A stretch of 32,000 nt of DNA. Origin: Phycisphaera mikurensis NBRC 102666. Its GTDB lineage: Bacteria > Planctomycetota > Phycisphaerae > Phycisphaerales > Phycisphaeraceae. A program made the position numbers and the translations under genes. Below, one piece after another: positions 858-28,841 of the stretch; within the stretch, counting starts at the first letter, position 1, and each line of letters opens with the position of its first letter. The notes beneath the pieces were generated by a model. It had not been told where the DNA came from and searched no databases. It was given only the letters and a program-made list of their open reading frames with translations. The stretch is taken from positions 690,001-722,000 of the forward strand of contig NC_017080.1 of the NCBI RefSeq assembly GCF_000284115.1. The letters are read 5' to 3'.

Positions 858-1682
858 ATGAAAATGATGAGCACGACCCCCTCTTGCCGTCTCCCACGGG
901 TCGCCGCGGCCGCGATCGCAGCGGCCGGCGTCGCCTCCAGCGCCTCCGCGGCCTCCTTCAACGACACCTTCGACAGCGCGGGCGACATCGCCAGCAACTA
1001 CACCGGCTTCGAGCTGACCAGCTCCGAGACGGCGGCCGGTGTCGACAGCAACACCTACAGCAGCGGCAGCAGCTTCGCGCTGGACCCCGTGGACGGCCAG
1101 GTGGACTTCACGGTGACGATCCCCAGCGGGTTCAACCTGAACATCCTCCAACGCAGCGTCGACGCGGCGAACCTCTACGACATCAACCAGGGCATGAGCC
1201 TGACGATGAACGCCAGCGGCCTCGATCCCACGTTCTTCGACGCGATCCGCAACCCGGCCACCTTCGGGACCTCCGGCGGCACGCTCAACGCGGACATCAC
1301 CGTCTCGGTGCAGAACATCGACTTCGGCCAGTACCGCCTCGGGGTGCAGGTGGGCGGCGTCGATCTGCCCGGCGGCGGCCAGCAGAACTACGCCGGTTCG
1401 CCGGACGGGGTGAACTTCACGCTGAACATCGACAACGACAGCTACAGCGTGCTGGCCGACGGCGCCGAGCTGATCGCCGACACGGCCCACGGCATCGTCT
1501 TCAGCTCGCTGGAGGGCGTGACGCCCACGGTCGGCGCCCAGAACGTCTTCGCGGGCGGGGGCAACACGTCGCTGTCCATCAACAGCTTCGCGGGGACCGG
1601 CGTCGCCGTGCCCGAGCCCGCCACCGCCACGCTCGCCGCCGCCGGCCTGGGCCTGCTGACGCTCCGCCGCCGCGGACGGTGA
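858..1682 (+). CDS. PEP-CTERM sorting-domain secreted protein
   Basis: ATG at 858 (MKMMSTT...) followed by a signal peptide (AAAIAAAGVASSASA). C-terminus VPEPATATLAAAGLGLLTLRRRGR is a PEP-CTERM motif plus TM plus Arg cluster. High GC3. Confidence 0.85.
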   Translation: MKMMSTTPSCRLPRVAAAAIAAAGVASSASAASFNDTFDSAGDIASNYTGFELTSSETAAGVDSNTYSSGSSFALDPVDGQVDFTVTIPSGFNLNILQRSVDAANLYDINQGMSLTMNASGLDPTFFDAIRNPATFGTSGGTLNADITVSVQNIDFGQYRLGVQVGGVDLPGGGQQNYAGSPDGVNFTLNIDNDSYSVLADGAELIADTAHGIVFSSLEGVTPTVGAQNVFAGGGNTSLSINSFAGTGVAVPEPATATLAAAGLGLLTLRRRGR

Positions 1683-1715
1683 GCTCCGACGCCGAGATGC
1701 ACCCCCGATCCGCGG
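1670..1715. repeat. 46-bp hairpin repeat, degenerate copy H
   Basis: CCGCGGACGG (1670-1679), exactly 26-nt loop, CGATCCGCGG (1706-1715). One mismatch per arm. Spans the stop codon of the 858-1682 gene. Confidence 0.5.
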
Positions 1716-1744
1716 GCGGCCCACCGGCCTCCCGCGGCCTTTTG
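1710..1744 (+). terminator. Putative intrinsic terminator after the PEP-CTERM gene
   Basis: Stem CCGCGGG (1710-1716) pairs with CCCGCGG (1731-1737), followed by CCTTTT. Confidence 0.5.
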
Positions 1745-1780
1745 AGTCCGCGTCCCACTCCTTCCCTTCAGGATCACTCG

Positions 1781-3379
1781 ATGCCCTCCACCCTCCTGCT
1801 CGCCGGCGGCGGCCTGCTCGCGCTCACCTCCACGCTGCTCGCCGCCGGTGCCGCCTCCGCCGCGCCCATGTCCGGCGTGACCGTCGGCTTCGGCGAAGCG
1901 GTGCCCGTGAACCGCGGCGCCTTCGGCCTCAACAACAACAACGCGGCCGCGGACGCCCGCACCAACGGCGACGCGTACCCCGCGCTCATCAAGGCCTTGG
2001 GCGCGACCTCGTCGCGGTACCTCGGCGGATCCTCTTCGTCCTTCTGGGACTGGCGGACCGGCAAGTACATCCCCGCCGACGAGATCACGGCCATCTGGCC
2101 CGAGCACCACGGCAACTGGATGCTCCCGCTGGTGGCCGACGTCGCGCGGCTGCCCGACGGCACGCTCGGGCCCGACAACTATGCGGCCTTCGCGGAGAAG
2201 GCCGGCGTGGACGTGCAGTGGATGACCAACTTCACCACGCGCGAGGACGACCAGGCGGACATGGTCCGCCACCTCCACGACGAGGGCATCCCGGTGAAGT
2301 ACCTCGAGCTCGACAACGAGACCTATTTCTGGGGCGCGGAGTTCGGCGGCGGGGAAGACCGCTCGCGGAAGTACATCGAGCGGGTGAAGGACTTCACGCC
2401 GCTGCTCCGCGAGCTCTACCCCGACGCCCGCGTCGGCGTCGTCGCCAGCGAGAACGGCGTCTTCGCCGACGAGATGCACGAGAAGGAGGACGCCCACACG
2501 CTGTGGAACGGCGTGATCACCCGGCCGGCGTACCGTGACCTGTACGACGCCTTCATCCTGCACCACTACGTGATGAATCAGGGCACGCTCGACGGCGTCG
2601 CCGACGGCAACGTGTCCGACGCCACGCTCGGGCCGGCCTTCCTCACCTGCCCCGAGGTCACGCTCGGGCACGCCATCGACGTGCTGGCGGAGGAGCACGG
2701 CGGCATCCCGATGTGGATCACCGAGTTCAACGTCATCGGCTACTACCGCATCGGCAACCCCGACGACGAGAAGCCCGACACCGGCGTCACCGACGCGGAC
2801 GCCTGGATCGCCCGCACCGCCCACACGCCCTGGAACGCGATCTACCAGGCGGGCTTCTGGCTGATGGCGCTGCAGCACCCCGAGGCGATCGAGATCCTTA
2901 ACCACCACAGCGTCACCAACGTCGACCTCGGCTGGGGCCTGGGCCTGCCGGTGAGCACCGAGGAGGCGGACCTCACCGCCACCGGCCAGCTCTTCGCGCA
3001 CCTGTCTCACCTGGCGGTCGGGGCCGACGGCGTGATGCCGCTGACCTTCGAGGGGAACCCGGACCTGGGTTCCGCTTTCGGCGGGGAAGAAGCGGGCGCC
3101 CTGCAGGGCGTCGCCGTCGAGCGGGACGGGAAGAAGCACCTCATCGTCATCAACCGCGGCGCGGACCCGGTTTCGATCGCGATGCCTGGCGGCGGGGCGG
3201 CGGAGCGGATCAGCTACCGCACCGACCGCGAGAACCCGCGGACGAGCCGGGTGAAGCTTGCGGGCGAGACGCCGGTGTGGCGGCAGGGGCCGATGGAGCC
3301 CGAGACGGTCGCCGTCGGGGCCGGCGGCCGGGTGGAGCTGCCGGCGTTCTCGCTGTCGGTGCTGATGAGCGGCCGGTGA
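1781..3379 (+). CDS. Secreted glycoside hydrolase, clan GH-A (beta/alpha)8-barrel type, family not assigned
   Basis: ATG at 1781 with signal peptide MPSTLLLAGGGLLALTSTLLAAGAASA. YLELDNETYFW (NE acid/base-type motif) and MWITEFNV (TEFN nucleophile-type motif) are spaced as in clan GH-A. The upstream part of the 713-3379 ORF is Arg-rich non-coding read-through. Confidence 0.75.
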   Translation: MPSTLLLAGGGLLALTSTLLAAGAASAAPMSGVTVGFGEAVPVNRGAFGLNNNNAAADARTNGDAYPALIKALGATSSRYLGGSSSSFWDWRTGKYIPADEITAIWPEHHGNWMLPLVADVARLPDGTLGPDNYAAFAEKAGVDVQWMTNFTTREDDQADMVRHLHDEGIPVKYLELDNETYFWGAEFGGGEDRSRKYIERVKDFTPLLRELYPDARVGVVASENGVFADEMHEKEDAHTLWNGVITRPAYRDLYDAFILHHYVMNQGTLDGVADGNVSDATLGPAFLTCPEVTLGHAIDVLAEEHGGIPMWITEFNVIGYYRIGNPDDEKPDTGVTDADAWIARTAHTPWNAIYQAGFWLMALQHPEAIEILNHHSVTNVDLGWGLGLPVSTEEADLTATGQLFAHLSHLAVGADGVMPLTFEGNPDLGSAFGGEEAGALQGVAVERDGKKHLIVINRGADPVSIAMPGGGAAERISYRTDRENPRTSRVKLAGETPVWRQGPMEPETVAVGAGGRVELPAFSLSVLMSGR

Positions 3380-3487
3380 CGGGAGGGCCCGGCGGGGCCA
3401 CGAGGCGGGGCCGTGGCGGCAGCGAGTGCGAACGCGGGATCACGCGGCGGCCACACGCACGCTGCGGGTTGCCGTCGCGCCGGGAGA

Positions 3488-3538
3488 AATTGTTAACAAT
3501 TCTGCCGGCTCGGGAGCCGGCTTCAAATTGTTTGCAAT
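3488..3538. promoter_or_regulatory. AT-rich operator-like region: two ATTG-N4-CAAT palindromes flanking a GC hairpin
   Basis: Perfect 14-bp palindrome AATTGTTAACAATT (3488-3501). GC hairpin GCCGGCT-CGGG-AGCCGGC (3504-3521). Second site AATTGTTTGCAAT (3526-3538). Lies about 110 bp upstream of the 3648 start. Confidence 0.4.
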
Positions 3539-3647
3539 CTTGAGCCGCCGGAGCTAACGTACTTAAGCCTCCGCGCCGTCTAGCTGAACCTCAGCTCGGT
3601 CAGGAGCACTCGTCACCCGTGCCGTTCGCACTTTTCGGAGAACCTTC

Positions 3648-4379: not shown

Positions 4380-4399
4380 AGCCGAGCCTGAACCAGAAC

Positions 4400-4436
4400 G
4401 CGGCGGGAGCTTCTCCAGGGGCTCCCGCCGCTTTCG
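4400..4436 (+). terminator. Intrinsic terminator
   Basis: Perfect 11-bp stem GCGGCGGGAGC (4400-4410) pairs with GCTCCCGCCGC (4421-4431), followed by TTTCG. Confidence 0.65.
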
Positions 4437-4527
4437 TGCGCGCCCAAGGGCTCGAGGTGTCGAGGAAGCGGGCTCGGCCTCAGCCCCTCAAGAATCTCTT
4501 GGGTTGAACCGGACGCTCGTCACTGCC

Positions 4528-4633: not shown

Positions 4634-4774
4634 CGGGCATCGGCCGGTTGCGGGAGATGGGTCGACGCTTGAGCCCTCCAGGGGTTGGAGGAACCGACGT
4701 GCGGAGGCACTGCCCACCCCCGAGCGGGATGGGCACCCCGCGAGCGAACGACCAAGGAGGTCCATGCACGCGTG

Positions 4775-5830
4775 TCAGGCCAGCCGCGCGTCGCCCGCGG
4801 GGAAGGTCACCTCCAGCCAAGCCGCGTCCGCCGTGACCTCCAAGTGGCCGTCGCCCATGGCCGCGGGCAGCAGCAGCGTGTCCCCGGCCCCGCAGGCGAC
4901 CGACTCGCCGCCGCCGGCGAGGGTGAGCGAGCCGGAGAGGACCATCCAGGCGACCGGCCCGGTGGAGCCGGCGCCGGCGGTGTCGGTGAAGCCGGCGGGG
5001 GCTTCGTGGCGGTCGATGCCGAAGTGCTCGCAGCGGACAAGGGCGATGCTCTTCGAGCCGCCAGGGCCATCGGTTTCGGTGCCGGGCTCGAAGCGGGAGG
5101 AGTCCGCCGGACCGAAGGTGCTGCACTCGATCGCCGCGTCGACGTGCAGCTCCCTGCCCTCGCGCCCCCAGTCGTACACGCGGAAGGTGGTGTCGCTGGG
5201 CGTCTGCACCTCGGCGACGAGGATGCCGCCGCCGAGGGCGTGGCACGTGCCCGAGGGCAGGTAGTGGCACTCGCCGGGAGAAACCTCGAAAGCCTCCAGC
5301 AGCGGGACGACGGCCTCGTCGGTGTTCTTCTCGAGCGCCGCCCGCAGGTCGTCGGGGGTCGTGCCGGCGGCGATGCCCTTGTAGATCTTCGCCCCGGGCT
5401 CGACGGCGACGATGTACCAGGCCTCGCTCTTGAGCTTGGCCTCGGGGTGCTCCGCCGCGTAGGCGGGCGAGGGGTGGACCTGCACGCTGAGGTTCGCGTT
5501 CGCGTCGAGGTACTTCAGCAGGATGGGGAAGCCGCCGTCGGGGCTCAGCGGGAGGTCGCGGAGCACGGCGTCCCGCGCCGCGTCGTCGGCGAGCACCGCG
5601 TGCAGCGTCCGCCCGGCGAGCGGCCCGTTGTCGATCGTGGAGAAGGCGGCGTCGCCGCCGCCGCCCGAGGCGGAGGTGGAGGCAAGGTCGACCAGCTCCC
5701 AGCTCTCGCCGATCGGGGCGTCGTCGGCGCCGGGCAGGTCGCGGCCGAGCTTCTGCTCCAGCGTCCGGCCGCCCCAGACCTTCTCCTTGTAGATCGGCCG
5801 GAGCTTCAGCGGGTAGGCGGCGGTGCTCAT
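4775..5830 (-). CDS. manA: Mannose-6-phosphate isomerase, class I
   Basis: Starts MSTAAYPLKLRPIYKEKVWGG (ATG complement at 5828-5830). Contains LSVQVHPSPAYAAEHPEAKLKSEAWYIV and YLPSGTCHALGGG, typical type I PMI cupin motifs. Confidence 0.9.
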   Translation of the reverse strand: MSTAAYPLKLRPIYKEKVWGGRTLEQKLGRDLPGADDAPIGESWELVDLASTSASGGGGDAAFSTIDNGPLAGRTLHAVLADDAARDAVLRDLPLSPDGGFPILLKYLDANANLSVQVHPSPAYAAEHPEAKLKSEAWYIVAVEPGAKIYKGIAAGTTPDDLRAALEKNTDEAVVPLLEAFEVSPGECHYLPSGTCHALGGGILVAEVQTPSDTTFRVYDWGREGRELHVDAAIECSTFGPADSSRFEPGTETDGPGGSKSIALVRCEHFGIDRHEAPAGFTDTAGAGSTGPVAWMVLSGSLTLAGGGESVACGAGDTLLLPAAMGDGHLEVTADAAWLEVTFPAGDARLA

Positions 5831-5844: not shown

Positions 5845-5890
5845 CCGCGGACCGCGACGCCAGCGGGCGCGCGAGGCCGACGGTCCGCGG
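5845..5890. repeat. 46-bp hairpin repeat, copy A
   Basis: CCGCGGACCG (5845-5854), 26-nt loop, CGGTCCGCGG (5881-5890). Lies between the manA start and the GT4 stop. Confidence 0.9.
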
Positions 5891-5895: not shown

Positions 5896-6966
5896 TCACC
5901 TCCCGCGGGCGGCGGCCCGCAGGACGCCCAGCAGGCGGTCGACGTGGGCGTCCATGGTCGCGCCCGCGGCGGCCGCGGCGGTGGCTTCCCTGGCCGCGGT
6001 CAAGGCGGCGGGTTCGCAGAAGCCCAGCATCGCCGAGGAGAGCGCAGCGGCGTCCCCGGCGTGGTCGAGGATGCGTCCCGCCGCCGATCCCTCGATCAGG
6101 TCGCACGCCCCGTTGGTGCGGGTGGTGATCACCGGCAGGCCGGCGTGCAACGCCTCGGCGACGACCTTGGAGGCGGGGTCGTAGCGGCTCGGCAGGACGA
6201 GCACGTCGGCCGCGGCGAGGGCGGCGGGCATGTCGTCGGTGGGGCCCGCGGCGGTGATCGCGTCGCCGCGGACCGCGGGCGAGAGAGCGACCAAACGGGC
6301 ACGGTCCGCGGATCCGACCACGCGGGGCCAGGCGCGGGCGAGCGCCGGCCAGCCCTTGCGGCGGAGGTCCGCCGACGGGAAGAGGAAGACGATCGCGTCT
6401 TGCGCGACGCCCCACGCGGCCCGCTGCCGGGCCCGCGTCCTCCGCGCCGGGGGCGGAACCCGCGGCGCCCCGTTCGCGATCACCGGCACCTCCGCCTCCG
6501 GCCGCCCCGTGTGCCGGACGATCTGCCGCTGCATGAAGCGGCTGATCGCCACCCACGTCCTCACCGACGGGTCGCGGAGCGTTGCGGCTTCCGCCGCCCA
6601 CATCGCCCGCCGCTTCCGCTGGAAGATCCCCGGCCGGTCGGTCGCCCACATCTCGCGGTAGATCCCCGCCCGCGGCTCGACCACGGCCGCGGGGCAGAGC
6701 GTCGTGACCGAGAGGCTGGTGTCGAAGGCGCCGACAAGCCGCCGGTCGGCCACGAAGCGGCGGTACCGGCGGACGTCGCGGGCGGACCGCATCCGTCGCT
6801 CGCCCGCCGCCTCGGTCTTCACGCCGTCGATCGCCCGGCCGGCCGGCGCGAAGCCGGTCAGCAGCGTGACGGCGCAGCCGCGGTCGCGGAGGCCCTCGCA
6901 GATCTGGCGGGTGGAGCTCTCGGCGCCCCCGTCGCCGAAGCTCTCGATCGTGACGGCGACCCTCAC
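5896..6966 (-). CDS. Glycosyltransferase family 4 (WaaG/RfaG-like GT-B)
   Basis: N-terminus MRVAVTIESFGDGGAESSTRQICEGL. C-terminal half has VLVLPSRYDPASKVVAEALHAGLPVITT (EX7E-type region). Its start overlaps the upstream heptosyltransferase stop by 4 nt. Confidence 0.85.
   Translation of the reverse strand: MRVAVTIESFGDGGAESSTRQICEGLRDRGCAVTLLTGFAPAGRAIDGVKTEAAGERRMRSARDVRRYRRFVADRRLVGAFDTSLSVTTLCPAAVVEPRAGIYREMWATDRPGIFQRKRRAMWAAEAATLRDPSVRTWVAISRFMQRQIVRHTGRPEAEVPVIANGAPRVPPPARRTRARQRAAWGVAQDAIVFLFPSADLRRKGWPALARAWPRVVGSADRARLVALSPAVRGDAITAAGPTDDMPAALAAADVLVLPSRYDPASKVVAEALHAGLPVITTRTNGACDLIEGSAAGRILDHAGDAAALSSAMLGFCEPAALTAAREATAAAAAGATMDAHVDRLLGVLRAAARGR
6266..6311. repeat. 46-bp hairpin repeat, copy B (inside the GT4 CDS)
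   Basis: CCGCGGACCG (6266-6275), 26-nt loop, CGGTCCGCGG (6302-6311). Confidence 0.9.
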
Positions 6967-7994
6967 ACGCCGACCGCGGCGGGCTCGCGCTCCCGCGCCG
7001 GCTCGAGCAGGCCCGACGCGGCGTCGACCACCTCGTCGACGGTGATCCCGCTCATCTCGCCGCTCCGCGCGACCACCTGCGCCTCGCGGTCGAAGCCGAT
7101 GGTCGTCCAGCCCGGCGCGGTGGGGCCGAAGAGCGTGACCACGGGCGTGCCGCAGGCGGCGGCGAGGTGGCGCGGGCCCGTGTCGCCGGTGAGCAGCAGC
7201 GCGGCGTCGGCCATGACGGCCTTGCCCGCGGCCAGGCCCGTGCCCGCTGCGACGAGGTCGGTGGCGTCGCTCCGCATCGCCGCGACCACGGCCGCGGCTT
7301 CCGCGGCTTCGCCGGGCGCGCCGGTGACGGCGGCGGCGAGGCCGTGGCGCTCGGCGAGCGCGTCGGCCGCCGCGGCGAAACGCATCGGATCCCAGCGTTT
7401 CTCCGGCTTCGCCGCGCCGGGGTTGAGCACGAGGGTGCGGCCGGGGGGCAGGCCGAGCCCCGCCGCGGCCCGGCGGTCGGCGTCGGTGGCGGTCACCCGC
7501 ATCCGCGTGTCGGCCCCGGCCGCGCCGAGGTAGCGGGCCAGCTGCAGGTAGTACTCGACCGTGGGGACCGGCACGAACTTCCGCTTCTCCCGCCGCGGGA
7601 TCAGCCGGTCGGTGAGCAGCAGCCCCCGGCCATCCCGCTCGTAGCCGATCCGCCGCGGGATGCCCGCGAGGCGTGCGAGCATCGCCGAGCGGAGGCTGTT
7701 GGGCAGCAGCACGGCGGTGTCGAAGCCGCCCGCGTGCAGCCGGTGCCCGGCTTCGATCACGTGCGGGCCCTTGCCGCCGGCTTCCAGGGCGATGACCTCG
7801 TCGAGGTCGCCGTTGCCGTCGAGCAGCGGCACCAGGTCGGCCCGCACCGCGGCGGCGAGGTGCAGCCCGGGGAGGTGCTCGCGGAGCGCGTGCAGCGTGG
7901 GCGTGCCCATCAGCACGTCGCCGAACCAGGTGGGCATCAGCACCACCAGGCGCTTCGGCGGCGGCGGGGGCGGCGAGTCGGCGAGCAGGGACAT
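6963..7994 (-). CDS. ADP-heptose:LPS heptosyltransferase (GT9)
   Basis: Starts MSLLADSPPPPPPKRLVVLMPTWFGDVLMGTPTLHALR. C-terminus has LLLTGDTGPRHLAAACGTPVVTLFGPTAP, the GT9 signature region. The upstream ORF extension to 8294 looks non-coding. Confidence 0.85.
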   Translation of the reverse strand: MSLLADSPPPPPPKRLVVLMPTWFGDVLMGTPTLHALREHLPGLHLAAAVRADLVPLLDGNGDLDEVIALEAGGKGPHVIEAGHRLHAGGFDTAVLLPNSLRSAMLARLAGIPRRIGYERDGRGLLLTDRLIPRREKRKFVPVPTVEYYLQLARYLGAAGADTRMRVTATDADRRAAAGLGLPPGRTLVLNPGAAKPEKRWDPMRFAAAADALAERHGLAAAVTGAPGEAAEAAAVVAAMRSDATDLVAAGTGLAAGKAVMADAALLLTGDTGPRHLAAACGTPVVTLFGPTAPGWTTIGFDREAQVVARSGEMSGITVDEVVDAASGLLEPAREREPAAVGV

Positions 7995-8010: not shown

Positions 8011-8056
8011 CCGCGGACCGCCGCCGGTTCCCGGCCCGCCGGCCGGCGGTCCGCGG
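8011..8056. repeat. 46-bp hairpin repeat, copy C
   Basis: CCGCGGACCG (8011-8020), 26-nt loop, CGGTCCGCGG (8047-8056). Lies in the divergent region between the heptosyltransferase and ferredoxin starts. Confidence 0.9.
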
Positions 8057-8072: not shown

Positions 8073-8348
8073 GTGCTCCCCCCGAGCCTCCAGCCTGGAA
8101 CCGTCACGCTCGCGGGCTCCGGCCAGCGCCTCGCGTGGAAGCCCGGCACCGCGACGATCCTGCAGCTCCTGCACGACGCCGGCGTCCCGCACCCCGCCGG
8201 CTGCCAGGAGGGCGACTGCGGGGCGTGCACGACGCCGCTGCTCGGCGGCCGCGTCGCCTACACCAGCTCGCCGAACGCGATGCACGACGACCACACGTGC
8301 CTGCCGTGCTGCTGCCGGCCGGTGGGCGACGTGGTGCTGGAGGCCTGA
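8073..8348 (+). CDS. Small 2Fe-2S ferredoxin (fer2-type)
   Basis: GTG at 8073 is the first in-frame start after the divergent gene. GCQEGDCGAC (C-x4-C-x2-C) plus a distal Cys cluster TCLPCCC. High GC3. Confidence 0.6.
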   Translation: MLPPSLQPGTVTLAGSGQRLAWKPGTATILQLLHDAGVPHPAGCQEGDCGACTTPLLGGRVAYTSSPNAMHDDHTCLPCCCRPVGDVVLEA

Positions 8349-10031: not shown

Positions 10032-10715
10032 TCATCCCAGCGCCGCCTCCAGCGGGCAAGGCGCGGGCGGCACGCCGCCGTCCCGGTACCGCCCCAGCAG
10101 CCGCTTGCTCTCCGCCGCGAGCGCCCGCCGGACCTCGCGGCGTCTCCCCTTGACCCGCGGGATGCGCATGTGGTCGTAGGCGGTGGTCCGGTGGCGGAGC
10201 CACGCGATCACCGCGGCGGCGGCCCGCTCCTGGATCGGGATCCGCTGCGTGCGGGCGACCGTGCCCGAGCCCACGGGCGTGGCGTGTGCCGCCACCGCCG
10301 CGGCGACGCGCCGCCCGAGCGGCGCGTGGGCCGGAGCGAAACCCAGGTAATCCTCCACCGCCGCGGCGAAGCCCGCCGCGTAAGCGGCTTCCTTCCTCGC
10401 CCGGGCGGCGCGGCCGGTCTCGAGCTTCCTGCGGTACACCGGGTCGGCCCGCTCCGCGGAGCGACGGGCCGTCTCCGCGGCGATCGTGCCCGCCGGGGCG
10501 AGCACGCCGCGGGAGAACGTGCGGCGGCCCCGCTTCTCCTGCACCGCCCAGTGCGGGCCCGCGGCCTTGACGCGCTTCGTCAGCGCGGCGTCGCCGGGCG
10601 GCAGCAACGCCCAGCCGTCGGGTGCCCGGAAGCGGGCGGCCCCGTCGCGGAAGACGCCGGGGATCGGGCCGGGCCCGACGGTGCGGGTGTCGGGCGGACC
10701 GGGGAGGACGGGCAT
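10032..10715 (-). CDS. DUF2293-like conserved hypothetical protein
   Basis: ATG complement at 10713-10715 (MPVLPGPPD...). The C-terminal region AWLRHRTTAYDHMRIPRVKGRRREVRRAL resembles DUF2293, recalled from memory. Confidence 0.6.
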   Translation of the reverse strand: MPVLPGPPDTRTVGPGPIPGVFRDGAARFRAPDGWALLPPGDAALTKRVKAAGPHWAVQEKRGRRTFSRGVLAPAGTIAAETARRSAERADPVYRRKLETGRAARARKEAAYAAGFAAAVEDYLGFAPAHAPLGRRVAAAVAAHATPVGSGTVARTQRIPIQERAAAAVIAWLRHRTTAYDHMRIPRVKGRRREVRRALAAESKRLLGRYRDGGVPPAPCPLEAALG

Positions 10716-10737: not shown

Positions 10738-10783
10738 CCGCGGACCGTCGGCGAAACCCCCCGCTTCCGGCCACGGTCCGCGG
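10738..10783. repeat. 46-bp hairpin repeat, copy D
   Basis: CCGCGGACCG (10738-10747), 26-nt loop, CGGTCCGCGG (10774-10783). Flanking C/G and T/A extend the stem. Lies 23 nt upstream of the DUF2293 start. Confidence 0.9.
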
Positions 10784-18800: not shown

Positions 18801-19313
18801 ATGAGCGACCACGACACCAAGCACGGCGACCCCAACCGCGACCCCATCACCGACGAGAAGGGCGCCCATCCGGTCGGCGCCGGCCTCGGCGCCGCCGCCG
18901 GCGGCGCCGCCACCGGTGCCGCCGTGGGCACCGTCGCCGGACCCGTCGGAACCGCCATCGGCGTGATCGCCGGCGGCCTCATCGGCGGCCTCGCCGGCAA
19001 GGGCGTCGCCGAAGCCGTCGATCCCACCGAGGAGGACGCCTACTGGCGCGACGAGCACGCCAACAAGCGTCGCGACTACTACAAGGACGACCGCGACTAC
19101 GACACGCACTACAAGCCCGCCCACCAGTACGGCTGGGAGAGCTACTCCAAGAGCAAGCACGAGAAAGGCGAGGCCGAAACCTTCGACCAGCTCTCCCCCC
19201 GCATGAAGCAGGAGTGGAACGAGCACCGCAGCGACAGCGACCTCACCTGGGAGGAGGCGCACCCCGCCGCCCGCGACAGCTACAACCGCGCCTACGAGAA
19301 GAACGCGAGCTGA
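18801..19313 (+). CDS. Glycine-zipper protein with a charged Tyr/His-rich C-terminal domain (stress-protein-like), function unknown
   Basis: AAAGGAA upstream of ATG 18801. GAGLGAAAGGAATGAAVGTVAGPVGTAIGVIAGGLIGGLAG glycine zipper. Followed by a terminator. Confidence 0.8.
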   Translation: MSDHDTKHGDPNRDPITDEKGAHPVGAGLGAAAGGAATGAAVGTVAGPVGTAIGVIAGGLIGGLAGKGVAEAVDPTEEDAYWRDEHANKRRDYYKDDRDYDTHYKPAHQYGWESYSKSKHEKGEAETFDQLSPRMKQEWNEHRSDSDLTWEEAHPAARDSYNRAYEKNAS

Positions 19314-19468: not shown

Positions 19469-19514
19469 CCGCGGACCGCGCGTGGAAACGCCGCGGAAAC
19501 CCGACGGTCCGCGG
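19469..19514. repeat. 46-bp hairpin repeat, copy E
   Basis: CCGCGGACCG (19469-19478), 26-nt loop, CGGTCCGCGG (19505-19514). Lies in a convergent gap, 43 nt past the DUF1194 stop. Confidence 0.9.
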
Positions 19515-19556: not shown

Positions 19557-20516
19557 TCAGTCGTACGCCGTCGGCTCCAGCTCCCGGACGAGCTTCTCGC
19601 GGATGCCGATGGCGAACTCCTCGAAGTCCGCGGCGTGCATCGAGAAGCTGTTGGGCCCCTGCGCCAGCTCGTCGGCGTACCAGCCTGCGAGGCCCTCGAC
19701 GTCGCCGATCGAGATGCCGTTGATCGTGACGTTGGGCCCCCGGTTGCCGAGGATGAAGTCCCAGGTGGGCCCCATGAGCCGGTCGAGGTCGTGGTCGTCT
19801 CCACGCTCGTTTGCCGCGTAGTAGGCCTGGTTCTCGCAGACCCCGTCGCCGGACACGTCGATGACCTCACGCCGGCCGTCGAACTTGTTCCGCTTCATGA
19901 AGTGCATCGCGGTGCCCAGGGCGTTGGACATGATCGTGTTGTCCGCGTGCCGCCGCTCGAAGTTGGCGATCCGTTGCGCGAAGCGGCGGCAGTCCGCCGC
20001 CGTCCGCAGATCGTGCCAGCCGGAGTTGCTGTGCTGCCACGTCGACGACCACGTCATGAACATGACGGCCACGCCGTCGCTCCGCATGATCTGCGCCTGC
20101 ACCGCCGGATCCTCGAAGGCCTTCACGTAGCCGTCGATCTGCAGCTCCCACTCCCGGTCGTCCACGCTCTTGGAGGCGTCGACCAGCAGGGCGAGCTCGA
20201 TGTCGACCGCCGTGTTCGGCGGCGGCGGCGGGGGCGGTGCCACGGGCTCCATCGGCGGGGCGGGCGGCGGCGGGTTGCGGCGGCGCTCCTCCTCCTCGAG
20301 GCGGCGGCGCTCCGCCGCCTCGGCCTGGCGTCGCTCCCGCTCGGCGATCTCCTCGGGGGTCGGCGGCGGCGGCGGCGGCGGGGGCGGGGCGACGTAGGGC
20401 CAGCCCTCGCTCGCGTCGGGCTCGGCGGCGCTCGCGGTTGTGGCGGGCGCGAGCACCGCGGCGGCGAGCAGCGCCGCCATCGGGAGTCGGAGGGCGTGGG
20501 AGAGGGAAGGCTTCAT
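19557..20516 (-). CDS. DUF1194 (vWA-like) domain protein with a poly-Pro / charged N-terminal linker
   Basis: ATG complement at 20514-20516 with signal peptide. VDIELALLVDASKSVDDREWELQIDGY, REVIDVSGDGVCEN and TINGISIG match the DUF1194 pattern, recalled from memory. Confidence 0.8.
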   Translation of the reverse strand: MKPSLSHALRLPMAALLAAAVLAPATTASAAEPDASEGWPYVAPPPPPPPPPTPEEIAERERRQAEAAERRRLEEEERRRNPPPPAPPMEPVAPPPPPPPNTAVDIELALLVDASKSVDDREWELQIDGYVKAFEDPAVQAQIMRSDGVAVMFMTWSSTWQHSNSGWHDLRTAADCRRFAQRIANFERRHADNTIMSNALGTAMHFMKRNKFDGRREVIDVSGDGVCENQAYYAANERGDDHDLDRLMGPTWDFILGNRGPNVTINGISIGDVEGLAGWYADELAQGPNSFSMHAADFEEFAIGIREKLVRELEPTAYD

Positions 20517-23343: not shown

Positions 23344-25242
23344 TCAGACCAGCTGCGCGTCCACCAGCCGCCGGTAGATCTCGCTGGCCCCGAGCAGCTC
23401 CTCGTGCGTGCCGCGGTCGACGATGCGGCCGTCGTCCATCACGACGATCTCGTCGGCGTCGACCACGGTCGAGAGGCGGTGCGCGATCAGCAGCGTGGTG
23501 CGGCCCTCCGCGAGGCGATCCATCGCCAGCTTGATCTTCAGCTCGCTGTCGGCGTCGACCTGGCTGGTCGCCTCGTCGAGGATCAGCACCGGGGCGTCAC
23601 GCAGGATCGCCCGGGCGATCGAGATCCGCTGGCCCTGCCCGCCGGAGAGGCCCACGCCGCCCTCGCCGAGCACCGCGTCGTAGCCGTCGGGCAGGCGGTC
23701 GATGAAGTCGTGCGCGAAGGCTCGCTTCGCGGCGTCGACGACATCCTCGCGGGCGGCGTGCCCGCGGCCGTAGGCGATGTTCTCCGCGATCGTCCCGCCG
23801 AACAGCGCCGTCTTCTGGCTCACCACCGCGATCCGCTCGCGCAGGCTCTTGAGATCCAGCGAAGCAACGTCCACGCCGCCGAGCAGGATCCGCCCGCGGG
23901 TGGGCTCGAGCAGCCGGGGCAGGTGATTCACCAGCGTGGTCTTGCCCGACCCATTGCCGCCGACGATGGCGACGCGGTGGCCGGCGGGCACGTGGAGGTC
24001 GACGCCGGCGACGGCGTCGCGGTCGGCGTTGGGGTAGCGGTGGACCACGCCCTCGAAGGCGACCGAGAGCGAGCCGGCGGGGGCCGGGGGCAAGCCCCGG
24101 CGGCCGGGCCAGTCGGTGGGTTCGGCCGGCAGCTCCTCGTCGAGGGCGATCACCCGGTCGGCGGCGGCGGCGGCGGCCTGCAGCTCGTTGGTCAGGTTCG
24201 CCAGCGGCTTGAGCTTCGAGCCCGCCGCGACCAGCGCGCCGAGCACCACGACCAGCTCCTCGGGCTGCACGCCGCGGTTGAAGACCCACCACGCCGCGAC
24301 CGACGCGGTAAGCACCACGCCGATCAGCGCCAGCGTGTCCATCAGCGGCGAGGAGGCCGCCTTGATCCGCCGCACCTTCAGCCGCTCCCGCAGCACCCGC
24401 CGCTGCACGTTCTGGAAGCGGCGTCGCTCCACGCCCTCGGCGTTGTGGGTCTTCACCGTCGCCAAGGCGGTGAAGGCCTGCGTCAGCGTCCGCAGCACCG
24501 AGCCGCGGTAGGACAGCTCGCGTCGCGTGCTCACGCGGATCCGCTTGCCGGAGAGCACGATGATGAAGCCCAGCAGCGGCGCGACGATGAGCGCCACCAG
24601 CGAGAGCCGCCAGTTCATGATGAAGGCGACCGCCACGCCGACGGCGCCCTGGAGCAGCGCCTCGAAGGTGCGGCCGAGCAGGATGGGGTAGCCGGCGCAC
24701 ATCTGCGTCACGTCGCCGGTGAGGCGGGCGATGAGGTCCGAGACGCCGCCGGTCGGCCCCTTCTCCAGCCCCGCCGGCGGCCCCCACCGCTTGCGCTCCC
24801 GCTTCACGGCCGCGTCGGAGTGCAGCCGCGGCAGCGGCACGCGGATCGCCCGGCGGAACAGCCGCTTCCGCCACCACTGCTCGGCGTAGATCGTGACGTC
24901 CTGCACCGAGGCGGTCTGCAGGTAGCGGCCGATGCTGCCGACGATCGTGAAGAGCACGATGACGCCCAGCAGGCTGACGAACTGGGTGAAGGGCGTGCCC
25001 GGCAGCAGGTCGATGACCCCGTTCGCCGGCCCCTGCAGCCAGCCCGGCCCGCGTTGCGCCGCGTCGCGGAGGGTCGGTCGCAGGTCCGTCTGCGGGTTCA
25101 GCAGCAGCTGCATCACCGGGAACAACATCCCCAGCCCGGCCCCGAACGAGGCGGCCGAGAGCAACGCACCCGCCACGAGCAGCACCAGCAGGCGCTTGAA
25201 CCGCAGAAGCACCCGACAGGATCGCCACAATGGACCACGCAT
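23344..25242 (-). CDS. ABC transporter, fused permease/ATPase, MsbA-like lipid/glycolipid exporter
   Basis: ATG complement at 25240-25242 (MRGPLWRSCRVLLRFKRLL). Six-TM exporter domain, Walker A GGNGSGKTT, signature LSGGQGQRISIARA, Walker B VLILDEATS. Confidence 0.9.
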   Translation of the reverse strand: MRGPLWRSCRVLLRFKRLLVLLVAGALLSAASFGAGLGMLFPVMQLLLNPQTDLRPTLRDAAQRGPGWLQGPANGVIDLLPGTPFTQFVSLLGVIVLFTIVGSIGRYLQTASVQDVTIYAEQWWRKRLFRRAIRVPLPRLHSDAAVKRERKRWGPPAGLEKGPTGGVSDLIARLTGDVTQMCAGYPILLGRTFEALLQGAVGVAVAFIMNWRLSLVALIVAPLLGFIIVLSGKRIRVSTRRELSYRGSVLRTLTQAFTALATVKTHNAEGVERRRFQNVQRRVLRERLKVRRIKAASSPLMDTLALIGVVLTASVAAWWVFNRGVQPEELVVVLGALVAAGSKLKPLANLTNELQAAAAAADRVIALDEELPAEPTDWPGRRGLPPAPAGSLSVAFEGVVHRYPNADRDAVAGVDLHVPAGHRVAIVGGNGSGKTTLVNHLPRLLEPTRGRILLGGVDVASLDLKSLRERIAVVSQKTALFGGTIAENIAYGRGHAAREDVVDAAKRAFAHDFIDRLPDGYDAVLGEGGVGLSGGQGQRISIARAILRDAPVLILDEATSQVDADSELKIKLAMDRLAEGRTTLLIAHRLSTVVDADEIVVMDDGRIVDRGTHEELLGASEIYRRLVDAQLV

Positions 25243-25342: not shown

Positions 25343-25388
25343 CCGCGGATCGCACGCTCGGAGGCGGGTTCAGGGCCGCGGTCCGCGG
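25343..25388. repeat. 46-bp hairpin repeat, copy F (one arm mismatch)
   Basis: CCGCGGATCG (25343-25352), 26-nt loop, CGGTCCGCGG (25379-25388). Overlaps the stop codon of the 25370-26566 CDS. Confidence 0.8.
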
Positions 25389-26566
25389 CGGGCGCCCGCC
25401 CACCGGTGGGCGTGCCAGGCCCCGATGCCGCCGACGACGACCGCGCAGAAGAGGGCGCACGCGGCCCAGCGGAGGTCGACGGCGGGCGGAAGCCGCTGCT
25501 GCAGCGGGTCCAGGCCCCAGACGGCGCTGCCGAGGAAGACGGCCAGGAGGACCGCCAGGACCGCCGGGCGCGGCCGCGCGAAGGCCGCGCCGACGGCATG
25601 GCGTGCCCGCCGGACGCCCGGCAACGCCCCCATCCGACGCCAGGGCAGGAACGCCGCGTAAGCGAGGAAGCTCTGCACGAAGAAGATGTCCATCGTGAAG
25701 AACACCGCGGTGTGGAACAGCACCAGCACCACGAGGTTCACCCGGAACAGCAGCGGCAGGAACACCAGGAACGCCGGCGCCCCCTCCGCCAGCACGGTGG
25801 CCCAGTCCTGCGCCTCCCAGACCCACCACGGCATCGGCAGCTCGATCGTCAGCCGGGTGGTGGGCGTGTCGCGGCCGGTCAGGTGGAAGTTCCGCAGCGT
25901 GTGGTAGAGGACCGCCTGCTTCTCGGTGTCCAGCCAGCCGCCGCGCAGCTTCGGGAGCGCGGAGGTGAACAGCGAGCAGCCGACGATCCACGCCCAGAGC
26001 GTGAGCAGGTAGCCGGCGCGGGCCGGGCTCACCCGCGGCCGGCCGCCGGCTCCGTCTCGGGCGCGAGCGCGGGCGCGGGCCTGTGCGTCCAGCGAGAGCC
26101 GGTCGCCCCAGCCGGCGTAGGCCATCACCAGCGGCATGATCACCAGCGTGATGTTGTGGCCGATCTTGCCGGTCGTGAACAGGCCGCCCTGCATGAGGAG
26201 GAAGCCCAGGGCGAGGCCGACCGACGCCGTGCGCGTCCACTTGCCGACGAACAGGAGGAAGGCGAGGACGCCGAGCACCGGGTTCAGCACGCCGTACAGC
26301 CAGGCCGGGGGCGAGCCGCCGAACGCCGCCACCATCAGCCAGGGCAGGCCCGGCGGCGGCTGGGCGGGGAAGCTCTCGAAGGCGGCGACCCAGCGGCCCG
26401 ACGGCAGCGATGCGAGCACGAAGAGCAACGCGAACGCCATCCGCAGGAAGGGCAGCCCGGCGATCGAGTCGGCGTAGAGCGTGTTGGCGCGGCGGACCAG
26501 CCGCTGCTCCCAGGTGGGGGCCGCGGCGTCGCGTGGCCCGGACGCGGCGGCCTCAGGCGGGGGCAT
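25370..26566 (-). CDS. Polytopic integral membrane protein, possibly HTTM (vitamin-K-carboxylase-like) domain
   Basis: Multiple TM segments. GLPFLRMAFALLFV and GHNITLVIMPLVMAYAGWGDRLSLDA resemble the HTTM N-terminal pattern, from memory and unverified. Confidence 0.75.
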   Translation of the reverse strand: MPPPEAAASGPRDAAAPTWEQRLVRRANTLYADSIAGLPFLRMAFALLFVLASLPSGRWVAAFESFPAQPPPGLPWLMVAAFGGSPPAWLYGVLNPVLGVLAFLLFVGKWTRTASVGLALGFLLMQGGLFTTGKIGHNITLVIMPLVMAYAGWGDRLSLDAQARARARARDGAGGRPRVSPARAGYLLTLWAWIVGCSLFTSALPKLRGGWLDTEKQAVLYHTLRNFHLTGRDTPTTRLTIELPMPWWVWEAQDWATVLAEGAPAFLVFLPLLFRVNLVVLVLFHTAVFFTMDIFFVQSFLAYAAFLPWRRMGALPGVRRARHAVGAAFARPRPAVLAVLLAVFLGSAVWGLDPLQQRLPPAVDLRWAACALFCAVVVGGIGAWHAHRWAGARRGPRP

Positions 26567-27038: not shown

Positions 27039-27048
27039 GCCGCCGAGC

Positions 27049-27215
27049 CTAGCAGGCCGCTGCAGAACCCCATCGGGGCTGCGAGCGGGCAGAATCGCGT
27101 CTCGCTTCGTCGAGCGTGACCCACGTAGTAGACGGCTACGCGGGTCCCGCTCTCCTCGCGAGACACGATTCTGCCGCGCTCTCGCCTGACGCGAGGTTCT
27201 GCAGCGGCCTGCTAG
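27049..27215. repeat. Long near-perfect palindrome H1 (167 bp)
   Basis: 21-bp perfect outer stem: CTAGCAGGCCGCTGCAGAACC (27049-27069) pairs with GGTTCTGCAGCGGCCTGCTAG (27195-27215). Inner paired blocks are GGCAGAATCG.GTCTCGC and GAGCG.GACCC. Apical hairpin CGTAG-TAGACGG-CTACG. Confidence 0.85.
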
Positions 27216-27366: not shown

Positions 27367-27367
27367 G

Positions 27368-28780
27368 CTAACGGGCGGCTTCCGCGCCCGCGGCCCGCAG
27401 CCGCCAGACGCGGTGCCGCGCGTCGCCGAGGCCGGCGTCCTCCTCCCACACGGCCGCCGGTGGCTCCCGCGCCGCCACCGCCCGCACGACGCCCGCGGCG
27501 AGCTCGGCGGAGCGGCCGGCCCAGGGCGTGCCCGCGGTGGCGACGTGGCGGCGGACCAGCGACGCGTCGGCGTCGTCGTCCGCGTCCTCGCCGAGGTGGG
27601 CCACCACGCCGGCGGGCTCGGTGAAGCGGGGGCACAGGCCGCCGGCGATGAAGCCGTACATGTCGGTGGTCCCGCCGAAGTCGAAGCTGCAGACCCGGCG
27701 GCCCGTGGCGGCGGCCTCGAGGAGCACGCCGGAATCCCCCGCGACGAGCCCGCCGACGCCGGCCAGGAAGACCGCGGCGGGCTCGGCGGTGGCGTCCGAG
27801 AAGCCGAGTCCCAGGCGCTCGGCGAGCTCGTGCTGGGCCGCGAGGGCGTCCCCCTGCGTCCGCGGGTGCGGGCGGAGGCGGAGCGTGCGGCCGGGCCAGC
27901 GGGTCCGCATCGCCGCGAGCAGGCGCTCGACGGACGCGAAGGGGTCGAGCATGTTGGTGCACACGCCAAGCGCCGCCGGCCGCTGCCCCGCCCCGGCCCG
28001 GGGCAGCGCATCGAAGCGGGCCGGCCCGGCGAGGAACGCCTCGGTCCGCTTGCCCGCCGGCCAGAACGACGGCGGGGGGGTGCGGGCCGCGGCCGCGCGG
28101 TACCGCTCCAGCGTGTCGACGCCGTCGAGCAGCGCCGCGTCGAAGGCCAGCGGCGGCGAGCAGGCCATCACGGTCGCGTGCTGGGCGTAGACGCAGGGCA
28201 CGCCCGCCAGCGCCGCCGCGGCCTGCCAGGCCCGCGTGGAGTGGCTGTGGTCGTTGGCGATCACCACCGCACGCACCCCGCCGCGACGCATCCACCGCCC
28301 CAGCATCCACGCCCAGCCGGGCAGGTGCAGGTACGCGTCGGCCGCCCAGCCGAAGCTCCGCCTCCCGTACGCCCCCGCGCGGCGGCCGGCCGCGGCGACA
28401 CCCGGCAGCGCCAGCGGGGCGAGCAGGAAGGGCACCGGGTGCCGCCACCCCCGCGAGCGGTCCGCGTCGTCGGGGGTGAGGAGCAGGCGCGGCGTGTCGG
28501 CGAGCCGCGCGTCGATGGCCCGCAGCGCCGCGTGCTGGTTCCCCGTCGACGCGACCAGCACCACGGGCGCCGCTTCGGGCAGCAGCGCCGGCCGCCGCCA
28601 GGCCCGCGATCCCCGCTTGCCCAGGAGCCGCAGCCGGCCCCGCACGCCCACCGCCTGCCGGGGCGCCGGGCCGAAGATCCCCGGCCGGCTGGCCCGGTAG
28701 GTCGGGCCCATCTCCTCCCGCGAGGCCTCCCAGGCGATCTCCAGCGGGTCCTGGCGCAGGCAGCGGAGGAGGTGACGCAC
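27368..28780 (-). CDS. Putative GT-B fold glycosyltransferase / capsule-biosynthesis-like protein (possibly CMP-sugar dependent)
   Basis: 470-aa ORF with high GC3. Rossmann-like VVLVASTGNQ and VVIANDHSHS, RLRPHPR (HP motif) and VAGDSGVLLEAAATG. Family assignment is weak. GTG start 28780; alternative ATG at 28711. Confidence 0.6.
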   Translation of the reverse strand: MRHLLRCLRQDPLEIAWEASREEMGPTYRASRPGIFGPAPRQAVGVRGRLRLLGKRGSRAWRRPALLPEAAPVVLVASTGNQHAALRAIDARLADTPRLLLTPDDADRSRGWRHPVPFLLAPLALPGVAAAGRRAGAYGRRSFGWAADAYLHLPGWAWMLGRWMRRGGVRAVVIANDHSHSTRAWQAAAALAGVPCVYAQHATVMACSPPLAFDAALLDGVDTLERYRAAAARTPPPSFWPAGKRTEAFLAGPARFDALPRAGAGQRPAALGVCTNMLDPFASVERLLAAMRTRWPGRTLRLRPHPRTQGDALAAQHELAERLGLGFSDATAEPAAVFLAGVGGLVAGDSGVLLEAAATGRRVCSFDFGGTTDMYGFIAGGLCPRFTEPAGVVAHLGEDADDDADASLVRRHVATAGTPWAGRSAELAAGVVRAVAAREPPAAVWEEDAGLGDARHRVWRLRAAGAEAAR

Positions 28781-28796
28781 GCGGGCGAGAAGCTAC

Positions 28797-28841
28797 CCGC
28801 GGCCGGGCCCGGGCCGGGTCGGCATCCCGTACGGTCCGCGG
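28797..28841. repeat. 46-bp hairpin repeat, copy G (1-nt deletion in left arm)
   Basis: CCGCGG-CCG (28797-28805), 26-nt loop, CGGTCCGCGG (28832-28841). Flanks ACC/GGT extend the stem. Lies between divergent starts 28780 and 28842. Confidence 0.8.

Follow-up and report, generated by a model that had tools for sequence, protein, structure and literature searches.

The stretch of DNA analysed here, called the window below, comprises 32,000 nucleotides of the planctomycete Phycisphaera mikurensis NBRC 102666 (contig NC_017080.1, positions 690,001 to 722,000 of the forward strand; G+C content 70-77%). The window matches contig JACHEL010000006.1 of assembly GCA_014207395.1, and its proteins are those of P. 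mikurensis. It contains eight copies of a dispersed 46-bp palindromic element that is capable of forming a hairpin, in which two 10-nt arms enclose a loop of typically 26 nt. The window was searched with the arm-pair pattern CCGCGGACCG-N26-CGGTCCGCGG, allowing at most three mismatches, and the result was compared with 100 dinucleotide shuffles of the window. The search returned seven matches against 0.17 expected, and the shuffles gave at most two, none of the 100 reaching seven, so that a chance origin could be excluded. Five copies, starting at 5845, 6266, 8011, 10738 and 19469, are perfect (10+26+10). At the same gap of 26, the copy at 25343 has one arm mismatch and the copy at 1670 has one in each arm, and an eighth copy at 28797-28841 combines a perfect right arm with a 1-nt deletion in or beside the left arm. 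A first-pass annotation of the same DNA had reported these eight copies with the same coordinates and sequences. It had also counted about 130 CCGCGG hexamers and noted that only the elements hold two of them at a 40-nt offset; the hexamers in fact number 148, and the observation on the offset stands, since the 40-nt pairs are the seven elements alone and any other offset from 20 to 60 gives 0-4 pairs. A covariance model (R1), trained on 48 copies all from outside the window, recovered the eight copies with scores from 51.6 to 19.1 bits, the next match scoring 17.7 bits. Two further candidates were rejected. The region 18604-18651, proposed earlier as a degenerate ninth copy, has five arm mismatches, a loop at the 60th percentile of random 26-mers and an R1 score of 7 bits, and a three-mismatch, gap-27 pair at 23067 is at background level.

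For comparison, we used loci of about 21 kb from four related uncultured genomes (L126, L128, L183 and L184), which were reached through GT4 and RecR homologues and are 78-95% identical to one another or to P. mikurensis in alignable blocks, and a second P. mikurensis region (L182). The P. mikurensis sequence covered about 67 kb of the 3.8-Mb genome, and the clade sample as a whole amounted to 150 kb in six loci.

The copies are described here from left to right. Copy A (1670..1715, minus strand; arms CCGCGGACGG and CGATCCGCGG, one mismatch each, gap 26; R1 30.2 bits; loop at the 96.6th percentile of the position weight matrix score) spans the last 13 nt (RRRGR*) of a PEP-CTERM gene at 867..1682(+) and lies 65 nt upstream of the gene at 1781..3379(+). 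It is the left arm of the copy that encodes the RRRGR* tail of 867..1682; several DUF1559-type prepilin-like genes, and PEP-CTERM proteins with RRRG(R) ends, occur in window regions 1-4379 and 13817-15589. Copy B (5845..5890, minus strand; perfect arms, gap 26; 50.2 bits) lies 5 nt past the stop of a glycosyltransferase (GT4) gene at 5896..6966(-); after a further 14 nt, which include a -10-like TACGAT, comes the ATG of a mannose-6-phosphate isomerase-like gene at 4775..5830(-); orthologous sites are occupied in L183 (5387) and L128 (11139). Copy C (6266..6311, minus strand; perfect arms, gap 26; 49.0 bits) lies within the GT4 coding sequence and codes for SADRARLVALSPAVRG; L183 shares it (4973-5018, 24 of 26 loop positions identical), whereas the orthologues in L126 and L128 lack it. 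Copy D (8011..8056, plus strand; perfect arms, gap 26; 51.6 bits) occupies the exact centre of a 78-bp divergent spacer between a GT9 heptosyltransferase-family gene at 6963..7994(-) and a ferredoxin gene at 8073..8348(+). It is separated by 16 nt from the ATG of the former and by 16 nt from the GTG of the latter, with a -10-like TACGNT box before each, and the Fer2/GT9 spacer holds a perfect copy in L126, L128 and L183 too.

Copy E (10738..10783, assigned to neither strand; perfect arms, gap 26; 51.4 bits on one strand and 50.9 on the other) is placed upstream of a DUF2293 gene at 10032..10715(-), 22 nt from its ATG, and 195 nt past the stop of ppc at 10979..13771(-); its complementarity reaches 23 nt per side, and no counterpart was found upstream of the DUF2293 gene of L126. 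Besides copy E, the ppc-DUF2293 spacer (window 10716-10978) contains two copies of a short GC hairpin motif, TCCGCCTGCGGCGGGGG. Copy F (19469..19514, minus strand; perfect arms, gap 26; 46.6 bits), with two GAAAC motifs in its loop, is placed in a convergent gap, 42 nt past the stop of a DUF1194 gene at 19557..20516(-) and 155 nt past the stop of the gene at 18801..19313(+). Copy G (25343..25388, plus strand; left arm CCGCGGATCG with one mismatch, gap 26; 34.8 bits) covers the last 19 nt and the stop of a membrane-protein gene at 25370..26566(-) and lies 130 nt upstream of an ABC transporter gene at 23344..25212(-). Its outer flanks lengthen the palindrome to 23 nt per side, and its loop is not family-like (74th percentile). 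Copy H (28797..28841, assigned to neither strand; degenerate left arm CCGCGGCCGG with the 1-nt deletion, perfect right arm, gap 25) is the weakest copy accepted (19.1 bits, E about 0.008). It takes up a divergent spacer of 61 bp, with 16 nt between it and the GTG of 27368..28780(-), and touches the GTG of 28842..29822(+), where TA plus the right arm reads TACGGT-CCGCGG-GTG. An arm-like CCGCGGACGGTA also stands against a start codon, reading TACCGT-CCGCGG-ATG, in a divergent 58-bp spacer past the window (window coordinates 34601-34658; L125 15760-15817); there the arm doubles as -10 box and spacer of a leaderless gene, as in copy H, and the partner arm is degenerate, with a gap of about 38 nt. 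By these gene calls, copies B, D, E, F and H are intergenic, A and G run across stop codons, and C is inside the GT4 coding sequence.

The element extends well beyond the window. A 14-kb extension of the window contributed further perfect copies at 32773, 34886 and 38239 and a gap-27 copy at -5011 (window coordinates), along with weaker ones, and L182 holds four copies. Identical arms and gap were found five times in L126, nine times in L128, seven times in L183 and six times in L184. Copies with at most two arm mismatches at gap 26 numbered 39 in the clade sample of 150 kb, or one per 3.8 kb; if these 150 kb, equal to 4% of a genome, are representative, a 3.8-Mb chromosome would carry copies on the order of 1000. 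Scanning metagenome contigs with the exact pattern gave 53 stretches, most of them from one marine assembly. In two relatives at a greater distance, no copy was present: 21 kb of Mucisphaera calidilacus (66% G+C) and 21 kb of a Phycisphaeraceae metagenome-assembled genome (63% G+C) contained none. In unrelated high-GC genomes (at least 120 matches), the arms co-occurred once per stretch and the spacings were uniform, 3 of 120 among those listed being 26. The family is wide but limited to the P. mikurensis clade.

Two other repeat structures were noticed in the relatives. The copy at L184 1336-1381 forms the centre of a larger nested palindrome, with arms at 1249-1282/1396-1429 and 1192-1234/1497-1539, which may be a composite or a larger element (1192-1539). 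Moreover, an unrelated second family of hairpin repeats, CCGGCAAC-N3-4-GTTGCCGG, occurs in L126 (5729-5906, 6610-6711), L128 (17794, 17927) and L183 (5556, 5691, 17387, 17463), in L126 as a tandem array of three 80-nt units upstream of DUF2293; the 67 kb of P. mikurensis contained no example of it.

To describe the anatomy of the element, 75 distinct copies were pooled, each read on its T-rich strand, whose consensus is (A)T-CCGCGGACCG-TCGCCGTTTCGGCC.GTTCC.GG.CSR-CGGTCCGCGG-(A)T. The loops, said earlier to share no obvious sequence, gave a weak consensus: position 11 is T in 43 of the 75 and position 13 is G in 56, position 34 is C, and T tracts at 17-19 and 27-28 lie about 10 nt apart. In leave-one-out scoring, 75% of the loops exceeded the 95th percentile of random 26-mers from the locus. 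This shared consensus is polar, and hence so is the element. The A that precedes the right arm in five of the eight window copies, as pointed out in the first-pass annotation, is the complement of the T at position 11. Partial (A)T was seen in the flanks on both sides. When gaps of 22-31 were allowed, the gap was exactly 26 in 38 of 44 copies, even though the loops themselves are 36-50% diverged. Ten arm pairs are invariant, and no compensatory change was seen in the arms. Pair 11-36 is T-A in 16 copies, C-G in 9, T.G in 12 and C.A in one, tolerating T.G and not C.A, whereas pairs 12-35, 14-33 and 15-32 combine C and G at random and do not covary. The lack of compensatory change and of inner covariation indicates that the sequence is conserved, not pairing alone. 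Compared with shuffled loops, the real ones gain only about 2 kcal/mol on folding (z = -0.8), and this weak folding, together with the absence of covariation past pair 11, leaves a supported stem of 11 bp. An extended stem was rejected as a family feature, since single copies pair further while the pooled copies do not covary beyond that pair. As RNA, the hairpins reach -21 to -39 kcal/mol, and the T-rich strand folds 1.4 kcal/mol better than the other. An attempt to assign the strand from G.U against A.C gave a mixed answer: pair 11 favours the T-rich strand and the mismatch of copy G the other strand relative to its genes, this arm mismatch at 25343 becoming G.U only on the non-transcribed strand.

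The evolutionary behaviour of the element was then examined in the 150 kb of the clade. At gap 26, 28 copies have no arm mismatch, nine have one and two have two, and copies with three or more are in no excess over control gaps. Each of the control gaps 16-36 gave about zero such arm pairs, and the fixed gap claimed for the family is borne out. Solo arms are not enriched, their number being about that estimated from base composition, and in 220 kb searched with R1 no score fell between noise and the true copies, which outside the window reach at least 29 bits. Comparison of orthologous regions gave five orthologous sets, namely the Fer2/GT9 spacer (four genomes), the site after the GT4 stop (three), recR (four), queG (two) and GT4 (two), and it also revealed lineage-specific copies, as in the cases of copies C and E above. 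In pairwise comparison of orthologous copies, 337 of 340 arm positions (99%) and 283 of 442 loop positions (64%) were identical. Orthologous loops agreed at 12-25 of 26 positions, whereas non-orthologous loops of equal polarity agreed at 9.8 on average (95th percentile 15), and this closer resemblance shows that the copies were inherited and not independently inserted. The absence of decayed copies, the fixed gap and the near-identical arms in turn place the arms and their spacing under strong constraint. The family is thus inherited vertically, and in nearly every copy it is the loop that drifts, the arms and their spacing being constrained. In this behaviour it resembles HIP1 of cyanobacteria, orthologous sites being conserved and three of the five sets lying inside open reading frames, although the architecture of the motif differs.

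A large part of the family lies inside genes. Among the 39 copies, 15 are wholly within one coding sequence (CDS), 14 in tandem gaps, six in divergent and four in convergent ones, and 17 are fully covered by coding sequence. The share of 44% in CDS compares with a coding fraction of 82% (17/39, p = 8e-8), which is an enrichment in spacers of about 3-fold. The first-pass description of the copies as almost all intergenic therefore applies to the window but not to the family, while the intergenic enrichment as such is real. Copies in CDS use all three frames and add about 16 residues, one end of the peptide being PRTV..., xADR... or RRGP... and the other end ...AVRG, ...DGPR or ...RSAD; such 16-codon stretches were seen in RecR, QueG, GT4, GH38 and others. 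In RecR, the element lies within a 23-residue insertion relative to the structure of D. radiodurans RecR. P. mikurensis and three relatives retain the motif RGPS-x7-DGPR, whose seven loop residues vary (TGKDETA, GGTAGND and others), and two other lineages have shorter, decayed versions. At the DNA level, the arms of the recR copies are perfect in all four genomes and retain GGA and GGT glycine codons that are expected to be rare at such a G+C content.

Copy C shows a different situation. Each of its 16 codons has an aligned counterpart in the element-free orthologues of L126 and L128, a core beta-strand included (LVALSP against WVALGP), and there is no indel at either end of the element. Its loop is family-like (99.9th percentile), whereas the aligned 26-mer of L126 is not, and yet the loop is 60% identical to the element-free orthologue and colinear with it. 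Judged from these alignments, copy C may have arisen by an insertion accompanied by an equal-sized deletion, or by substitution in place. The GT4 orthologue in L183 (4320-5382), whose internal copy is the one of P. mikurensis, is called only as a 168-residue C-terminal fragment, with 4321-4875 left uncalled, and it may be a pseudogene or carry a frameshift.

The relation of the element to transcription was assessed next. The first-pass annotation had taken the A before the right arm as a marker of the transcribed strand and had suggested a role in the RNA. With orientation assigned by a loop matrix trained on metagenome copies only, and with unambiguous contexts counted in the 150 kb, the T-rich strand was sense in eight copies and antisense in 16 (p = 0.15; the counts are non-independent, as they include orthologues). 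There is no significant link to the direction of transcription, and the A does not track the transcribed strand in this wider sample. Rfam gave no match at gathering thresholds over the window and none at E<=1 over 5700-11000. No copy was among the five terminator-like sites in window positions 1-20000, a count at the shuffle level, and no T run was found in the flanks. A few copies closely follow stop codons (copy B by 5 nt, L128 11139 by 4 nt and L182 5979 by 12 nt), and downstream of DUF386, where P. mikurensis has a family copy, L126 has a different, unique long hairpin.

As for promoters, among 40 genes within the window and close to it, about 17 have a TANNNT that ends 6-7 nt before ATG or GTG, without a Shine-Dalgarno sequence and mostly without an element (for example at 5831-5844, 7995-8010, 8057-8072, 8409-8420, 8712-8723, 10716-10737, 21751-21762 and 27039-27051), and the remaining genes have long C/T-rich leaders. 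This sequence pattern suggests widespread leaderless transcription in P. mikurensis. Because TANNNT is common at genes generally, the -10-like boxes beside copies B, D, E and H belong to the genome and not to the element, and the idea that they form part of it as a promoter or operator was rejected. A gene start of another kind was noticed at window 29823-30566, where a cytidylyltransferase (CTP_transf_3) gene is called from ATC at 29865. There is no in-frame ATG, GTG or TTG before 30036, yet the conserved N-terminal motif (TYTAVIPVRAGS) lies upstream of 30036; the gene could start at a non-canonical codon or be coupled to the preceding gene, which ends at 29822.

Signs of mobility were also collected. 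In addition to the lineage-specific copies C (P. mikurensis and L183 only) and E (missing upstream of DUF2293 in L126), a 6.5-kb island of L128 (11230-17747) that has no counterpart in L183 (compare 5479-5509) contains five copies, and its right junction coincides with a degenerate copy. The island includes an insertion sequence (IS; DDE_Tnp_1), whose terminal repeats lie at 11438-11464 and 13196-13222, and what is left of several defence genes (SLFN/AlbA_2, HATPase_c_4, DUF2726 and an MmeI_N fragment). The break in synteny between P. mikurensis and L183 after GT4 likewise falls at a copy, and some copies are clustered in inverted orientation. No target-site duplication was evident, the dinucleotides at the two ends usually differing. 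The ISs that adjoin copies (L128 11438-13222 and L184 1680-3120) were rejected as parents, their terminal repeats being unrelated, and the Pfam annotation of the fetched loci, including the roughly 67 kb of P. mikurensis, contained no Y1_Tnp domain.

Taken together, we tentatively favour the reading that the family is a vertically inherited, selection-maintained bipartite palindrome that is read on DNA by a sequence-specific protein, a proposal that we regard as plausible but short of probable. We infer action at the level of DNA and a protein reader from several features: the arms are invariant without compensation, the spacing is fixed, solo arms are not enriched, orientation shows no significant bias, and copies are conserved within variable protein loops. 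Fixed spacing in particular favours the reading of two sites on a duplex, as spacing hardly matters for the loop of a hairpin. According to this proposal, the two invariant 10-bp arms would be a pair of half-sites, or the stem of a DNA hairpin or cruciform after extrusion, and a single sequence-specific protein, most likely a dimer, would contact both. The 26-bp spacer would fix how far apart the arms stand, and its two T tracts, separated by about 10 bp, may give the duplex a prior bend. Copies would be passed on vertically and kept intact by purifying selection, or by some other maintenance process, acting on nearly every one of them. Effects on neighbouring genes, namely a stem-loop in the transcript, occupancy of leaderless promoters from -17 to -62 and 16 extra codons in a protein loop, would be incidental.

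Several observations weigh against this proposal. The approximately 150 kb examined, equal to only about 4% of one genome, encode no obvious candidate for a reader protein beside a copy. The arm centres are 36 bp apart (about 3.4 helical turns), an uncommon geometry for a dimer bound to straight DNA. In thermodynamic terms the hairpin is strong, with the RNA folding energies given above, and the pattern at the 11th pair (T.G in 12 copies, C.A in one) is the one expected of a single-stranded stem, in RNA or single-stranded DNA, on the T-rich strand. The L128 accessory island with its five copies suits transposition better than selection site by site. Finally, purifying selection on about 1000 sites demands a strong general function, and none can be named. 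A bolder form of the same proposal, which we consider doubtful, is that the element constitutes a genome-wide chromosomal signal (about 1000 per genome) of a kind not recognised before, with a dedicated reader, maintained copy by copy across genera and arising or restored in place by substitution even inside genes, which would act, for example, in organising the nucleoid or supercoils or in recognising self DNA, for instance in uptake or repair.

A selfish, non-autonomous mobile element of the REP/REPIN or MITE (miniature inverted-repeat transposable element) type is a possible, though not a likely, alternative. Its arms would be terminal inverted repeats, or the stem of a single-stranded DNA hairpin, for a transposase encoded elsewhere (a RAYT-like HUH enzyme or another), and it would spread by transposition and persist where it does little harm. 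A short palindrome in high copy number with 3-fold enrichment in spacers fits such an element, as do a polar consensus that spans the loop as well, as if derived from a master copy, the five copies in the accessory island, the clusters in inverted orientation and the lineage-specific copies. Copies sit in protein loops, as in the 23-residue insertion of RecR, and so do Rickettsia palindromic elements. Furthermore, HUH class 3 genes with REP-like structures have been found mainly in Planctomycetes (PMC6006769), and REPIN-RAYT systems have been described as vertically inherited and long-lived (10.1101/2022.05.22.493013). However, old orthologous copies of such an element should decay, whereas the arms are 99% identical against 64% for the loops and there is no tail of copies with three or more mismatches. 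The missing target-site duplication, the absence of a GTAG/CGTC tag, the unrelated terminal repeats of the two adjoining ISs and the lack of a Y1 transposase in the annotated loci speak in the same direction. So does copy C, which is colinear with its element-free orthologues and lacks an indel at its ends, and 46 bp would probably be too short for a duplex to loop and join its ends. The hairpin in cis proposed by the first-pass annotation, acting in RNA on the transcribed strand in 3'-end protection, termination or processing, draws on the stability of the stems, on the copies just past stops (B, L128 11139 and L182 5979), across stops (A and G) or in a convergent gap (F), on the unique hairpin downstream of DUF386 in L126, which suggests that hairpins at gene ends are useful, and on pair 11, which takes T.G and not C.A on the better-folding T-rich strand. 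We nevertheless find it unlikely. The count of eight sense to 16 antisense copies is against it, and the 44% of copies in CDS are conserved there (recR in four genomes, queG in two), where termination or processing would do harm. Neither a U tail nor an Rfam match was found, and ten stem pairs that are invariant instead of covarying, with a loop of fixed length, are not what RNA stability needs. Copies D and H lie upstream of both divergent, leaderless-type starts and are probably not transcribed with either gene, and the mismatch of copy G forms a wobble only on the non-coding strand.

A self-DNA signal under population-level drive, comparable to the uptake sequences of Pasteurellaceae and Neisseriaceae or to HIP1 and produced mostly by point substitutions through biased uptake and recombination or biased repair, would account for the steep mismatch spectrum (28, 9, 2, 0), for copy C without an indel, for a motif that is common to related genera and missing outside the clade, and for a strong core with a weaker interior and phased T tracts. 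The extended uptake sequence of Haemophilus has a similar layout of core and interior. Conservation at orthologous sites inside as well as between open reading frames is known for HIP1 (PMC5861425), and the CDS share of 44% resembles the 34-65% of uptake sequences, which also occur at poorly conserved residues (PMC2817400). This explanation still appears quite unlikely to us, because uptake sequences and HIP1 are single motifs of 8-12 bp, whereas the element is a 46-bp pair whose solo arms are not enriched, and 20 fixed positions are far less likely to arise by substitution than 8-10. We know of no natural competence in Phycisphaerae, which also counts against it. In addition, genes without homologues in relatives lack uptake sequences (PMC2817400), yet here an accessory island is rich in copies. 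The last alternative, an operator for the transcription factor of a regulon or a promoter module of leaderless genes, was prompted by copies B, D, E and H, which lie 14-22 nt upstream of starts and directly upstream of TANNNT boxes, and by copy D, which is centred exactly between divergent starts and whose position by the ferredoxin -10 box is kept in four genomes. It is highly improbable, given that TANNNT 6-7 nt before the start is general, that arm and -10 box are separated by anything from 1 to 9 nt or more, that the -35 position falls within the variable loop, and that copies also occur in convergent gaps and CDS at about one per 4 kb, far above any regulon.

The family belongs to the dispersed palindromic repeats of bacteria, among which its pattern of conservation is unusual. 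The first-pass annotation could assign it to no repeat family, and it matches neither an Rfam family nor any of the described REP types (PMC3733652). Literature searches with the arm sequence in full text (which returned primers only), for palindromic repeats in Phycisphaera and for REPIN/RAYT in Planctomycetes found no description of it, and Phycisphaera goes unmentioned in the supplements of the HUH phylogenomics paper. With REP/BIME and REPIN-RAYT systems the element shares a short, GC-rich, hairpin-capable palindrome in high copy number, mostly in spacers and partly inside genes, often in inverted pairs, lineage-specific and vertically inherited. Recognition of REPs by a dedicated protein has been proposed, and described REP units have stems of 5-13 bp and loops of 2-20 nt (PMC3733652). 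The stem of 10-11 bp, the copy number and the spacer enrichment of the element fit this description, but its loop of 24-26 nt lies beyond the described range, and no GTAG/CGTC tag occurs in the flanks of the 75 copies; where GTAG does adjoin copy D and its orthologues, it is the ferredoxin -10 box read in reverse. Unlike those of REPINs, its 10-nt arms form no hairpins of their own and occur alone at chance level, and unlike REP/REPIN-RAYT systems in general, it has arms that are identical across genera and at old orthologous sites, strictly fixed spacing and, in the fetched loci, no RAYT, the Y1 HUH transposase gene that such repeats typically flank.

Rickettsia palindromic elements (RPEs), reportedly described by Ogata and colleagues in 2000, are comparable as palindromic repeats that lie in frame within genes and add a short peptide (16 codons here) in a tolerant surface region. 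RPEs are 100-150 bp long, AT-rich, confined to Rickettsia and unrelated to the element in sequence, and we know of none with a bipartite core of fixed gap. Some of them have been equated with CGTC REPs (PMC3733652). HIP1 (GCGATCGC) of cyanobacteria is similarly a hyper-abundant palindrome that is kept at orthologous positions inside as well as between open reading frames and has no evident role at gene level, be it in peptide, RNA or expression, and a function at the level of the chromosome has been proposed for it (PMC5861425). It differs in being a single 8-bp site linked to orphan methyltransferases, where the element has two 10-bp arms and a polar 26-bp spacer at a density one to two orders of magnitude lower. 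Uptake signal sequences and DNA uptake sequences (USS/DUS) occur in hundreds to thousands of near-perfect copies across related genera, and the element is multi-genus as well. Inverted pairs are frequent among intergenic USS/DUS, and phased AT tracts are a feature of the extended USS. One third to two thirds of USS/DUS lie in open reading frames, at poorly conserved residues and in several frames (PMC2817400). They are, however, single motifs of 9-12 bp with optional pairing and variable spacing, whereas unpaired arms of the element are not enriched. MITEs such as Correia elements likewise have terminal inverted repeats, are non-coding and dispersed and can adjoin promoters, but they usually measure 100-400 bp and come with target-site duplications and a related autonomous IS, neither of which was found for the element in the loci examined. 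Integron attC sites (R''/L''...L'/R', with a GTTRRRY core, 57-141 bp) form cassette arrays next to intI; in contrast, the arms of the element are unrelated, its length is fixed at 46 bp, and it is dispersed among housekeeping genes with no integrase nearby. By analogy, the element appears closest to REP in form, its presence inside genes recalls RPEs, and its evolutionary behaviour seems closest to HIP1, with a likeness to uptake sequences too.

Dispersed palindromic repeats are common in bacteria and their function is mostly unsettled, and the family described here provides unusually clean constraints. Its pattern of conservation implies that something reads the sequence, and the 46-bp element is a sharply defined bait for that reader, in a phylum about whose DNA transactions little is known. 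The family can further serve as a test case for a question that HIP1 and uptake sequences have posed, namely whether thousands of identical short motifs are kept by selection, drive or transposition. In practical terms, annotators should be warned that 16-codon insertions in proteins of the Phycisphaera clade are repeat-derived, and the element can serve as a marker of this clade in metagenomes. If the proposal of a chromosomal signal is true, the element would be a planctomycete counterpart of HIP1 and USS with a new architecture.

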